Source: Bacteroidia bacterium
Lineage (GTDB): Bacteria; Bacteroidota; Bacteroidia; NS11-12g; UBA955
Assembly: GCA_038317095.1 (NCBI GenBank)
Contig: JBBQBB010000009.1
Location: 4,956-68,955, forward strand
Direction: 5' to 3'
Length of the DNA stretch: 64,000 bases
Under the pieces are notes generated by a model. That model saw nothing but the letters and a program-made list of their open reading frames with translations. It did no database searches and had not been told where the DNA came from. Below, one piece after another: positions 19,322 to 34,015 of the stretch. The translations under genes and the position numbers were made by a program. Each line of letters starts with the position of its first letter. Position 1 is the stretch's first letter.

Positions 19322-20434
19322 ATGTTTCAAATCCATCTTGTAAATAGTGGCACTGATATCAGCGATTTTCATGCAGTTGCAGATTTAGTCTATGCGGATG
19401 ATCCAGAATATATTTATCCGCTTTACAATGATATAGAGGAAGTGTTTGACTCCAAAAAAAATCCAGCATTTATAGAGGGTGAAGCCATTCGATTTTTATT
19501 AAAAGAAAATGGCAAGTCTGTAGCCAGAAGTGCAGTTTTTTATCAAAACCGACCCGATGGTTCTAAAATGGGTGGGTTGGGTTTCTTTGAATGTATTCCA
19601 AATCCGATCGCGGCTTTTGCGGTCTTTGATTTTTGTGTTGCTTGGCTAAAAGATAAAGGGTGCAGTTACATGGATGGCCCTGTTAATTTTGGGGATAGAG
19701 ATAGTTTTTGGGGTTTGCTCGTAGAATGCCATACTTATCCATCGTATAGAGAAAATTACCAACCCAAATATTACCGCGCGTTTTTCGAAGATTTCGGTTT
19801 TGAAAAAATTATTGAACAGAGTACATCCGATATTACAGAAACGGAATTCAATCTCGAAAGGTTCGGCAAGCTGGCAAGCCGGGTTCTCCAAAATCCCAAA
19901 TACAGCTTTAGGCTTTTGGACTTTAAACAAATAGATAAGTTTGCACAAGATTTTGTTTCTATCTACAATCAAGCATGGCATCACCATGAGGATTTTAAAC
20001 CATTGACACTGGAAAAAATGCAAGATCGGTTGAAGCAGATTAAGCCCGCCATTGACCCAGATTATGCCATTTTTGCCTATGCCGATGAAAAACCCATAGG
20101 TTTTTACATTAGTATTTTGGAAGTGAACCAAGTCTTTAAAAGATTTAAAGGCAAATTGAATTTATGGAACAAATTACAATTCCTGTATTACCGAAGGTTT
20201 ATCAATAAAGTACGCGGTATTGTTTTTGGCGTAATCCCAGAATACCACAATTTGGGCATTGAAACGGGTATGATTATGAAATTTCACGACAGTTTTAAGT
20301 TGTCAAGCGGACGAATAAAGGTGGCAGAATTGGCCTGGATTGGCGACTTTAATGCAAAAATGCTGAGCATGTTAAAATCTTTAGGCGCCCGCACCACTAA
20401 GGTTCACTTCACATATAGAAAAAATTTCAATTAA
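19322..20434 (+). CDS. YghO-like tandem-GNAT acyltransferase
   Basis: YPLYNDIEEVF..KNP, GFFEC, MDGPVNFGDRD..GLL, FGVIPEYHNLG, LAWIGDFN. Track start is 19304. Confidence 0.85.
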   Translation: MFQIHLVNSGTDISDFHAVADLVYADDPEYIYPLYNDIEEVFDSKKNPAFIEGEAIRFLLKENGKSVARSAVFYQNRPDGSKMGGLGFFECIPNPIAAFAVFDFCVAWLKDKGCSYMDGPVNFGDRDSFWGLLVECHTYPSYRENYQPKYYRAFFEDFGFEKIIEQSTSDITETEFNLERFGKLASRVLQNPKYSFRLLDFKQIDKFAQDFVSIYNQAWHHHEDFKPLTLEKMQDRLKQIKPAIDPDYAIFAYADEKPIGFYISILEVNQVFKRFKGKLNLWNKLQFLYYRRFINKVRGIVFGVIPEYHNLGIETGMIMKFHDSFKLSSGRIKVAELAWIGDFNAKMLSMLKSLGARTTKVHFTYRKNFN

Positions 20435-20460
20435 TTTTTTGTTCTTAATTGAGGAAAACT

Positions 20461-20468
20461 TACCTTTG
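20461..20468 (+). promoter_or_regulatory. -7 promoter (TACCTTTG) for the tRNA-Lys transcript
   Basis: TAnnTTTG with a TTTG (-33-like) element near 20438-20441, followed by GCAGTCCC as in Bacteroidetes stable-RNA promoters. Confidence 0.7.
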
Positions 20469-20523
20469 CAGTCCCGTTAACAAAACGGGTCGTTCTAAAA
20501 CCCACTCGCAAGAGTTAAAATTT

Positions 20524-20647
20524 GATTCCGTATCTCAGTCCCAAAGACTTCTTAAGTCTGTAAGACTTAGAATCTCGAGGGTTCACGACAATCTAATTTG
20601 CCCAAAGCATATAAGATTCGTCGGGATTGGCAGAGTAAAGAATCACC
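20524..20647 (+). pseudogene. Disrupted tRNA-Lys copy with an 88-nt hairpin insertion in the D-loop
   Basis: 20524-20539 matches tRNA-Lys 20701-20716 at 15/16. After the insert (20540-20627), 20628-20638 matches 20717-20727 at 9/11. GAATCACC at 20640-20647 can close an acceptor-like stem. Anticodon and T arms are absent. Confidence 0.7.
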
Positions 20648-20700
20648 CGTTCTGAAAATAACTCGCAAGAGTGAAAATGTTCTCGTAATGAGAAAAATAT

Positions 20701-20776
20701 GATTCCGTAGCTCAGTTGGTAGAGCAATACACTTTTAATGTATGGGTCCTGGGTTCGAGTCCCAGCGGGATCACCA
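20701..20776 (+). tRNA. tRNA-Lys (TTT)
   Basis: GATTCCGTAGCTCAGTTGGTAGAGC...CTTTTAA anticodon loop...GGTTCGAGTCCC...GGATCA-CCA. Confidence 0.97.
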
Positions 20777-20798
20777 ATTAATTTCAGCATTCATATCT

Positions 20799-20832
20799 AA
20801 ATGCCTCATAATCAACGTTATGAGGCATTTTC
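20799..20832 (+). terminator. Hairpin/terminator after tRNA-Lys
   Basis: AAATGCCTCATAA-tcaacg-TTATGAGGCATTT inverted repeat followed by T-rich sequence. Confidence 0.6.
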
Positions 20833-32710: not shown

Positions 32711-32715
32711 CAGTG

Positions 32716-33106
32716 CAGTTCTTCCTGTCGCCTAAACATTATTGTTTTGGAGGAAAGTCCGGGCAACACAGAGCACCGTGCTACCTAACGGGTAGGCTTT
32801 TGATTCGTAAGGGTCGAAAGACAGCCAGTGTCACAGAAACTAAACCGTCAAGGCAAGATTTGCTTCGCCTTGATAAGGGTGAAAAAGCGGGGTAAGAGCC
32901 CACTCGCCGGTTTGTAAAAATCGGTTGGGATAAACCTCACGGGTTGAAAAGCCAAATAAACCCGGTTATGAACTGCTCGTTTAGGTTCGTTGCAAAACGA
33001 ACAACCGGGAGGGTAGGCTGATTGATCCGATTCGCGAGAATCGGACCAGATAAATGACAGGATGTACATAGAAATATGTATAAACAGAACCCGGCTTACA
33101 GGACTG
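32716..33106 (+). ncRNA. rnpB: RNase P RNA (type A)
   Basis: GAGGAAAGTCCGGGC, AGTGTCACAGAAA, GGTAAGAGC, GATAAACC, AGATAAATGAC, ACAGAACCCGGCTTAC; 5' CAGTTC pairs with 3' GGACTG. Ends are approximate. Confidence 0.95.
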
Positions 33107-33185
33107 TTTTTTATTGTGTGAATAGAATGATACTTGAAGAATAAAAATACATAAATTTATTCTTGCCTTTAAGGAGCAGAAGTAT

Positions 33186-33193: not shown

Positions 33194-33228
33194 CAGCACT
33201 GTAAAAAAGGATATTTATATCCTAACAA

Positions 33229-33304
33229 GCAGAAGTAGCTCAGTTGGTAGAGCATCACCTTGCCAAGGTGAGGGTCGCGAGTTCGAGTCTCGTCTTCTGC
33301 TCCA
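33229..33304 (+). tRNA. tRNA-Gly (GCC)
   Basis: GCAGAAGTAGCTCAGTTGGTAGAGC...TTGCCAA loop...GAGTTCGAGTCTC...TCTGCT-CCA. Confidence 0.97.
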
Positions 33305-33472
33305 AAAGCCCCGGAAACGGGGCTTTTCTTTTGATATGCATTGCGTTTATATATTGTATTCGCCGTTGAATAATAAATTTTATATTGGAGAAACCTCAAA
33401 TATTGAAGAACGGCTCAAGCAACACAATCGAGGCCTAAATCCAAGTACCGCACCATTTGCACCCTGGGAAAT
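33290..33472 (+). repeat. 183-bp direct repeat, copy 1 (tRNA 3' end + terminator + GIY-YIG 5' half)
   Basis: Matches 33756-33938 with 3 mismatches; period 466 bp. Confidence 0.95.
33305..33332 (+). terminator. Intrinsic terminator after tRNA-Gly (repeated at 33771-33798)
   Basis: AAAGCCCCG-gaaa-CGGGGCTTTTCTTTT. Confidence 0.85.
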
Positions 33473-33641
33473 AGCATTTAGTTGCGAAAAGCCCATTCTG
33501 CGAGAAGCATTGAAATTGGAAAAGAAGCTAAAAAACCTACACAGTCATGCCCGGATTATTGCCTTTACCTTGCATTCGCGGAGTCCACTGCGGGAGACTC
33601 CGCGAAATTGGGATGGTTTATGGAAATACCCCAAACTATAA
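33336..33641 (+). CDS. Small stand-alone GIY-YIG nuclease
   Basis: CVYILYS...KFYIGET...ERLKQHN...EALKLEKKLK contains the Tyr, Arg, His and Glu catalytic set. Confidence 0.9.
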   Translation: MHCVYILYSPLNNKFYIGETSNIEERLKQHNRGLNPSTAPFAPWEIAFSCEKPILREALKLEKKLKNLHSHARIIAFTLHSRSPLRETPRNWDGLWKYPKL

Positions 33642-33662
33642 AATAAAATGGGGGTTTGAGAC

Positions 33663-33755
33663 CTCCGACGATTCCATGTTTTGCCCTGAAGGCAAACATT
33701 GGAATGTCGTGAGCCCACGACCGCCTAGGACCCCAAAGTCCAAGGCGCGTCGGGG
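33663..33755 (+). repeat. REP-like GC-rich double-hairpin element fused to a tRNA-Gly 3' remnant
   Basis: Hairpin 1: CGAC-ATTCCA-TGTTT-GCC..GGC-AAACA-TGGAAT-GTCG. Hairpin 2: CACGAC-CGCCT-GGAC-CCCAAA-GTCC-AGGCG-CGTCGGG. Confidence 0.65.
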
Positions 33756-33938
33756 TCGTCTTCTGCTCCAAAAGCCCCGGAAACGGGGCTTTTCTTTTGA
33801 TATGCATTGCGTTTATATATTGTATTCGCCGTTGAATAATAAATTTTATATTGGAGAAACCTCAAATATTGAAGAACGGCTTAAGCAACACAATCGAGGG
33901 CTAAATCCAAGTACTGCACCATTTGCACCCTGGGAAAT
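33756..33938 (+). repeat. 183-bp direct repeat, copy 2
   Basis: See 33290-33472. Confidence 0.95.
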
Positions 33939-33981
33939 CCGAAAATTATTATCAATTATTGTTACCTCTGATGAAATTTAG
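33802..33981 (+). pseudogene. Truncated second GIY-YIG copy (59 aa)
   Basis: First 46 residues are identical to copy 1, then unrelated; lacks the EALKLE catalytic-Glu helix. Confidence 0.85.
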
Positions 33982-33987
33982 GGCAAA

Positions 33988-34015
33988 AAAAAAACCGACA
34001 CTAGGTCGGTTTTTT
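33988..34015. terminator. Bidirectional terminator
   Basis: AAAAAACCGAC-actag-GTCGGTTTTTT between convergent genes. Confidence 0.8.

Follow-up and report, generated by a model that had tools for sequence, protein, structure and literature searches.

The stretch of DNA analysed here, called the window in what follows, comprises 64,000 nucleotides (nt) of a Bacteroidia bacterium (contig JBBQBB010000009.1 of assembly GCA_038317095.1, our genome G000). The element in question is a pair of adjacent hairpins, a doublet, which is found beside a tRNA-Lys gene (site 1) and beside a tRNA-Gly gene (site 2); all the features described at both sites lie on the + strand. At site 2, the intact tRNA-Gly (GCC) gene (33229..33304; ARAGORN, Rfam score 71.4 bits) is followed by a terminator-like hairpin with a T run (33304..33334) and, 2 nt further on, by the ATG of a small open reading frame (ORF) of 101 amino acids (aa), P0001 (33336..33641), whose residues 1-70 match the Pfam GIY-YIG nuclease domain (E 2.6e-16). 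Behind this ORF there is a stub of 13 nt (33650..33662) which, compared by eye with positions 33276-33289 of the intact gene, consists of the 5' strand of the tRNA-Gly T-stem plus a T-loop-like segment; the stub is clearer at the orthologous locus of genome G013 (L058). Then come hairpin 1, of reverse-complement type (33663..33713), and hairpin 2 (33714..33755), whose right flank is the last 15 nt of tRNA-Gly, present with the terminator for a second time (33756..33800) and followed by a truncated second copy of the GIY-YIG ORF, P0002 (33802..33981), with homology to the first copy up to 33938.

This arrangement is marked out by a direct repeat of 183 nt (33290-33472 and 33756-33938, 98% identical, spacing 466), which spans the last 15 nt of tRNA-Gly, the terminator and the first 137 nt of the small ORF. 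The resulting tandem unit of 466 bp (33290..33755) runs from the tRNA-Gly 3' end through terminator, GIY-YIG gene and T-arm stub to the doublet, and the GIY-YIG gene is its sole ORF; site 2, if read as a cassette, would correspond to 1.4 tandem copies of it. Because, within 33327-33338, the T run of the terminator stops 2 nt before the ATG, the GIY-YIG ORF has no room for a promoter of its own, and to judge from the sequence its expression would depend on read-through from the promoter of tRNA-Gly or of the RNase P RNA. The latter (bacterial class A, 242.6 bits) lies at 32712-33114 on the same strand, 115 nt upstream of tRNA-Gly; together with tRNA-Lys and tRNA-Gly it is the only non-coding RNA of the window found by ARAGORN and Rfam, and only these three reach the Rfam gathering score.

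The unit was also present in metagenome contigs of four runs from four studies. In runs X1 and X3 it forms a contig of 460 nt (a unit of 430 nt plus 30), as expected if a tandem array had collapsed or the 430-nt unit were circular. Its record depth, which is not a copy number, is 1.3-4x that of the flanks (20.1 against about 5.3 in X1, 8.85 against about 3 in X5). In all four runs (4/4), 9 letters beginning with TAG stand in place of a 45-nt insert (33568..33612) at the 3' end of the window ORF, so that residues 79-101 of P0001 are read from the insert and the ORF has about 77 aa in the four metagenome variants. This insert contains a palindrome of another, TCGCG-like type, perfect over 11 bp.

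At site 1, the doublet is located in the D-loop of a dead copy of tRNA-Lys, beside the live gene. A duplicated copy of the leader and upstream region (20491..20523; direct repeats 20491-20521/20648-20678, 84%, and 20517-20539/20694-20716, 91%) precedes nt 1-16 of the dead copy, from the acceptor 5' strand to the D-loop (20524..20539; 15 of the 16 nt match the beginning of the intact gene). Hairpin 1 follows (20540..20581), again of reverse-complement type and with decayed termini, which takes on the family hairpin fold when reverse-complemented (DNA z -2.9), and then hairpin 2 (20583..20626). Read against the intact gene, the remainder of the dead copy (20627..20647) consists of D-arm nt 17-28 and an acceptor 3' remnant, without anticodon and T arms. 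The intact tRNA-Lys (UUU) gene is found at 20701..20776 (ARAGORN; Rfam 73.1 bits). We read site 1 as a gene-less doublet, non-autonomous or a relic, in a decayed tRNA-Lys copy.

The pattern CACGAC-N-CCCAAAG-N-CGTCGGG, on which the initial annotation was based, has exactly two matches in the window, 20584-20625 and 33716-33754, both on the + strand, and 0.00 were expected from 100 dinucleotide-preserving shuffles. As the annotation had stated, each match is the second member of an adjacent hairpin pair, which is seen both in the sequence and in the folds. The two motif hairpins have z values of -2.8 (site 1) and -5.6 (site 2) when folded as RNA and of -3.9 each when folded as DNA; hairpin 1 of site 2 has a DNA z of -6.7. 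With R1, the covariance model that we built for the hairpin units (threshold E 0.01 in genome scans), hairpin 2 is matched at E 1.3e-8 in site 1 and E 2.6e-6 in site 2, and hairpin 1 of site 2 on the minus strand (33664-33712, E 7.4e-6). The 7-mer CCCAAAG on its own shows no enrichment in the window (19 occurrences, 12.6 expected). The hairpins resemble no Rfam RNA family: neither site has a covariance-model match at the gathering score, nor anything meaningful at E up to 10.

The module as a whole is an inverted doublet of about 90 nt with termini YCCCGA...TCGGGR, in which hairpin 1 corresponds to hairpin 2 in reverse complement, and its sequence is accordingly alike on both strands. Each hairpin (39-49 nt) follows one layout: the 5' half has CC, a bulged A, CGAY, a 5-bp stem ending in CT, an A.A mismatch and a variable apical stem, and the 3' half has AG plus 3 nt, a bulged C, RTCG and GG. 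Both window hairpins fit it, with CGAC in the 5' half and GTCG in the 3' half. Their inner stems pair, as had been stated earlier, but with this common layout they are not altogether unrelated. The flanks also had to be re-read: the 3' flank is tRNA-derived, as had been stated, but so is the 5' flank, and the doublet sits inside the dead copy rather than abutting it. Nor is the loop fixed, as had been supposed. Read by eye, the apex is C-AAA-G or C-TTT-G in 11 of 28 units, and CCCAAAG occurs only in the two window units.

To evaluate covariation, we aligned 16 units from three genomes (G000, its congener G002, and G013 of another genus) over 11 basal pairs. These units were chosen by a pattern that fixes the outer bases, and only the five inner pairs and the Y-R pair count as free evidence. 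Pairing was found in 96.4% of the cells, against 76.6 ± 1.9 in shuffles, none of 500 of which reached the observed value. Seven of the 11 pairs show double-sided change, with 32 cells changed on both sides where 8.2 were expected, and pairing falls to 24-50% of the cells when the partner is slid by 1-3 columns as a control. Moreover, 26 of the 28 units fold into the common DNA hairpin. The two hairpins are therefore members of one real structured family, as the initial annotation had proposed; its termini are conserved, and compensatory changes have maintained the structure.

Further copies were found with R1, in line with the check that had been recommended. In G000 there are six matches at E below 0.01, all previously seen: both arms of site 2, arm 2 of site 1, both arms of a doublet on contig C28 and one unit on C72. 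The C28 doublet occupies the exact boundary of T-stem and T-loop in a 3' half-copy of tRNA-Leu, on the downstream side of the intact gene. With filters off, a weak single hairpin of reverse-complement type was also seen in the leader of a tRNA-Pro (C26), while a single unit in direct orientation relative to the tRNA occurs in G002 (L053). Inverted pairs made of a reverse-complement arm and a direct arm are found at both window sites, at C28 and at loci of relatives. The family has about 10 copies per genome, and in G000 the terminal 7-mers show no enrichment (64 observed, 100 expected); a high-copy REP family was rejected on this account.

Among 41 relatives, convincing copies of the exact pattern were present only in G000, G002 and G013; a match in G022 fell in coding-looking DNA and was not counted. 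The covariance model reached further, with matches at E 0.01 or better in 13 of 125 family genomes: G000, all four congeners, the single genome of genus g10, five of the 12 of genus g9, and two weak ones in other genera (G135 and G115, E 0.006-0.009), which fall in coding-looking DNA without a tRNA and are likely false. Outside the set used to build the model there are 12 loci, in nine other family genomes, and all 12 lie inside tRNA-derived fragments, several of them tandem arrays of 2-5 fragments. At these loci the doublet interrupts the D-loop of tRNA-Lys and tRNA-Phe cleanly at nt 15|16, without target duplication, two tRNA-Met species at nt 10|11, tRNA-Leu, tRNA-Arg(CCU) and tRNA-Arg(CCG) at T 53|54, and a tRNA-Met in the T-loop. 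Taking genus and family together, the insertion points are stem/loop junctions of the D-arm (10|11, 15|16) or of the T-arm (53|54, about 61|62) in dead partial tRNA copies beside an intact gene. Across different tRNAs and 10 genomes, the hairpins keep their termini, their bulges and the CTA...AAG internal loop.

At one of these points, nt 15|16 of the tRNA-Lys D-loop, a hairpin with the basal stem AATCTAA...TAAGATT is arm 2 (tRNA sense) in G000 and arm 1 (antisense) in G004 (L095/L104); either two doublets inserted here independently or the doublet was inverted. Close to the SRP RNA (ffs) gene, pattern searches revealed three tandem units of about 100 nt, both in G000 (C49:26522-26750, L052) and in G002 (C97:21659-21902, L046); each unit has one family hairpin, and the inner stems differ between the two genomes.

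The tie to tRNA genes was also observed in metagenomes, where a stricter pattern gave 117 loci and the non-pairing matches served as internal control. An ARAGORN tRNA was present within 400 nt at 4 of the 8 loci in which all four free positions pair, at 1 of the 26 in which three pair (a true doublet), and at none of the 83 in which two or fewer do. By eye, nine loci are true hairpin loci; six are in tRNA fragments and three are free-standing intergenic doublets. These last (L177, L195 and L222) stand between protein-coding genes, with no surrounding tRNA sequence on their contigs.

Signs of movement can be read from several comparisons. Near-identical units are found in a tRNA-Leu fragment of G000 and a tRNA-Phe fragment of G002; one compensatory pair and an indel of 2 nt in the loop are all that separates them. 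A metagenome contig from a near-identical strain (L240) carries two tandem plugged tRNA-Leu fragments where G000 has one (C28:15900-16700). In genus g9, two tRNA-Arg T-stem variants swap between the live gene and plugged fragments.

The GIY-YIG protein was the partner suggested for the hairpins in the initial annotation. P0001 consists of the catalytic domain only, without a separate DNA-binding domain; besides the Pfam GIY-YIG match, only an overlapping T5orf172 match was obtained. NCBIfam gave no family above cut-off, no relatives were found in viral contigs by the close-relative method, and the ESM Atlas returned only generic clusters named "GIY-YIG nuclease family protein", of about 80 aa and mostly from Bacteroidota. 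The closest relative among the 41 related genomes is that of G013 (53% identity). The layout of tRNA, terminator, GIY-YIG gene, T-arm stub, doublet and tRNA 3' end is shared by three loci, namely tRNA-Gly of G000, tRNA-Gly of G013, which bears the matching hairpin signature (R1 E 4e-7), and tRNA-Ala of G091 (L113), whose doublet is recognisably similar, yet was missed by R1. Family-type doublets thus stand directly behind small GIY-YIG ORFs at three tRNA loci.

The type of doublet changes with the GIY-YIG subclade. A sister subclade, with the C-terminal motif LKNLNT(E/K)DL, has a different doublet at T 53|54 of tRNA-Lys (G002) and tRNA-Arg (G013); the same doublet type was predicted for the member of this subclade in G006 and then found at the tRNA-Arg of that genome. 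A third doublet type occurs at G004_C6. Of the 117 metagenome loci, three were matched by a private GIY-YIG profile, and each of them is a true hairpin locus. On this evidence the GIY-YIG protein is a reasonable candidate partner, given the three tRNA loci and the doublet type that tracks the subclade.

Relatives of P0001 were found in several phyla, at loci of Bacteroidota, Omnitrophota, Elusimicrobia, Saccharibacteria, Balneolaceae and others, and 34 of 42 such loci have a tRNA or tmRNA on the same strand within 183 nt (20 upstream of the gene, 14 downstream). At four of the seven loci without a tRNA, the match lies within 416 nt of the contig end. The relatives seem to fall into two arrangements. 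In one, a "KLKNL" clade lies downstream of the tRNA and the plug occupies the T-arm; in the other, a "REKxxK" clade appears to lie upstream of the tRNA, behind a 5' tRNA fragment plugged in the D-loop.

Several known systems resemble this arrangement in part. Ssn proteins are single-domain GIY-YIG nucleases of about 94 aa (about 90-100 aa), which bind and cut only single-stranded DNA next to the NTS/SRM hairpin repeats flanking their genes, and its authors note that the arrangement resembles an insertion sequence (Chenal et al. 2025, PMC11893778). P0001 is likewise a single-domain GIY-YIG protein (101-aa ORF, about 77 aa in the population variants), and hairpin-forming repeats with conserved non-palindromic flanks adjoin its gene. 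The Ssn nucleases are the best working analogy, and membership of P0001 in the Ssn clade (CDD cd10448, GIY-YIG_unchar_3) is at most a possibility. In the portion of Supplementary Data 4 that was sampled, the Bacteroidota rows have no SRM enrichment and match cd10448 only by a looser criterion, and the main text never mentions tRNA (PMC11893778). The hairpins described here are, unlike those of Ssn systems, longer (39-49 nt), paired as inverted doublets and located within tRNA gene fragments.

Homing endonucleases offer a second comparison. Seg proteins are larger and have a DNA-binding region. Phage T4 SegB is described as a free-standing, site-specific GIY-YIG homing endonuclease from a tRNA gene cluster, producing mostly 2-nt 3' extensions, and its inheritance drags flanking tRNA sequence along (PMC2330249). 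The cassette resembles it in having a GIY-YIG gene among tRNA genes, and the location of the gene in or beside its target recurs at the 34 of 42 loci of relatives mentioned above. It differs in the bare catalytic domain, in the bacterial chromosome as host, and in the hairpin doublets and partial tRNA duplications within the unit. Integrase-type attL/attR sites are similar in that an intact tRNA gene and a displaced partial copy bracket the inserted DNA, as in the duplicated tRNA 3' end of site 2; the paper on such partial tRNA genes contains neither hairpins nor GIY-YIG (0 occurrences each; PMC9897764). Unlike integrase products, the 466-bp unit has neither a tyrosine nor a serine integrase, and both 5' and 3' tRNA fragments, tandem arrays and hairpin plugs are present. 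REP/BIME/REPIN elements share the short imperfect palindromes in inverted pairs with a conserved base, presumably recognised as folded DNA, but the doublets differ from REP/REPIN with RAYT in their low copy number, in the lack of association with Y1 transposase genes and in their insertion into tRNA gene loops. A full-text search, largely outside subscription journals, returned no account of bacterial cassettes in which a small GIY-YIG gene is combined with tRNA fragments plugged by hairpins.

Taken together, the two hairpins seem to be members of a family of mini selfish elements, so far undescribed, that targets tRNA genes. Our preferred reading, held with middling confidence and leaning on the Ssn analogy, is that the doublet would be the cis-acting recognition and end structure of a tRNA-gene-targeting cassette whose only gene would encode a small Ssn-like, single-domain GIY-YIG nuclease of about 77-100 aa. 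The anatomy, the covariation, the distribution in the family, the tie to tRNA genes and the switch of doublet type with protein subclade are observed; protein binding, single-stranded cleavage and the mode of movement we infer as follows. The doublet would fold as a DNA hairpin, single-stranded or extruded, with the conserved bulged A and C, and would be bound or nicked by the cassette nuclease. The cassette would bring a replacement tRNA piece, because of which the host tRNA gene would stay whole, and the displaced tRNA stub would be left behind with the doublet as a plug.

Several observations weigh against this reading. GIY-YIG enzymes hydrolyse DNA, and none is known to join strands; therefore, insertion would need host functions. 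The best solved relatives of P0001 are SLX1 (E 4.6e-4) and UPF0213 BH0048 (E 0.007). Most doublets have no GIY-YIG gene nearby, and a P0001-like gene was found within ±1.5 kb of none of the 12 new family loci; G012 has a doublet and no P0001-like match, and encodes a small GIY-YIG protein of another clade. The correlation between subclade and doublet type could be the same whether the protein recognises its own doublet or the cassette is simply inherited as one piece. Neither an empty site nor an excised form was seen in the metagenome contigs, in which the direct repeat would hide an empty site. The parallel with Ssn systems is also incomplete. The site-2 ORF has both hairpins on its 3' side and is not flanked by them. 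There are about 10 copies per genome instead of hundreds (SRM repeats are enriched genome-wide, with tens to hundreds of copies), and the hairpins fail the published, degenerate SRM motif, which has 2 matches in G000, against 3-10 in five shuffles, and none within 20400-20800 or 33200-34000 (PMC11893778).

A broader form of this proposal can be put forward only tentatively: doublets and GIY-YIG genes of about 80 aa might constitute a distinct, undescribed class of minimal mobile elements in many bacterial phyla. The bare GIY-YIG nuclease would recognise folded single-stranded DNA, that is, its own hairpin ends, and also the cloverleaf loops formed by a tRNA (or SRP-RNA) gene as single-stranded DNA. 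Insertion would take place at D- and T-loop junctions without target duplication. By carrying a replacement tRNA segment the element would spare the essential gene, and in its wake there would remain tandem arrays and stubs plugged by hairpins.

The alternative that survives best, although we consider it unlikely, is that the doublet is an independent palindrome similar to miniature inverted-repeat transposable elements or REPINs, moved by another enzyme such as a Y1 (RAYT/IS200-type) transposase, with a preference for hairpin-forming tRNA gene DNA, and that GIY-YIG cassettes merely use the shared hot spots. REPINs and BIMEs do have this layout of inverted hairpin doublets, two full Y1_Tnp genes are present in G000 (E 3e-27 and 5e-27), and both the free-standing intergenic doublets and the 12 new loci devoid of a nearby GIY-YIG gene would be expected. 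However, when the RAYT-associated REP explanation raised by the initial annotation was checked, no such hairpins were found flanking the Y1 (RAYT-type) genes of the genome: within about 1.5 kb of them there was no R1-type hairpin (filters off, only noise at E above 2.9), and no inverted repeat of at least 14 nt was present near them. Some 10 copies per genome, with unenriched terminal 7-mers, also contrast with the more than 100 per genome of REP/RAYT systems (PMC2817692), and three cassettes have the doublet directly behind the GIY-YIG ORF.

Less probable still is that the hairpins do not transpose and are repair or recombination scars, formed on the spot at tRNA gene breaks by fold-back synthesis or from hairpin-capped ends. 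Such an origin would account for doublets that are almost always within broken, partly duplicated tRNA copies, for the high variability of the apical sequences, and for the several unrelated plug types of one genome (contigs C6, C26, C50 and C76). It is at odds with termini, bulges and a CTA...AAG loop that are conserved over different tRNAs and 10 genomes, with near-identical units at different tRNAs of different genomes, and with doublets away from any tRNA.

The weakest alternative, an RNA that acts in tRNA-operon read-through transcripts (in processing, in stability or as a 3'-end signal for the GIY-YIG mRNA) or as a tRNA-like small RNA, has in its favour the strong covariation, stable whole-region RNA folds at the two sites (z -3.2 and -5.9) and the probable transcription of these regions from tRNA promoters, site 2 offering no space for a separate promoter between terminator and ATG, but it is very improbable. 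The doublet reads alike on either strand, and a single unit may face either way with respect to the tRNA (direct in G002 L053, of reverse-complement type in the C26 leader); a shared basal hairpin serves as arm 2 in G000 but as arm 1 in G004 at one tRNA-Lys D-loop position; free-standing copies stand between protein genes; and there is no Rfam match even at E 10. We therefore read the doublet as a DNA-level element rather than as an RNA gene; a tRNA-like cloverleaf fold, with the outer ends paired and the central palindrome as a hairpin, is possible.

If the cassette reading is true, the small hairpin-reading GIY-YIG nucleases, which are biochemically proven and biologically unexplained, would gain a selfish life cycle aimed at tRNA genes. 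It would also explain a common annotation nuisance, the partial tRNA copies, and would provide natural pairs of a tiny nuclease and a defined hairpin substrate with differing specificities. The prediction is that each protein subclade binds or cuts its own doublet type.

Finally, partial tRNA copies and plugs are not limited to the doublet family. In the assembly, 8 of 32 ARAGORN tRNA genes have partial copies within 1.2 kb, and a hairpin insert was seen in seven of these eight. Outside the window, other plugged contigs of G000 are C6:87443-87711, C26:20972-21710, C50:99-389 and C76:115-272. At least three other plug types are present in this genome: a palindrome, CCCGAT-AGCT-ATCGGG, in place of the anticodon loop, and hairpins of the forms TCCGCC...GGCGGA and TTCGCC...GGCGAA. 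Other lineages (L024, L027, L008, L010, L113 and L114) have different plugs at comparable sites, several with a common CCCGAC...GTCGGG or CCCGCCCGA...TCGGGCGGG stem; the whole anticodon arm of L113 and L114 has given way to a simple CCCGAC hairpin.

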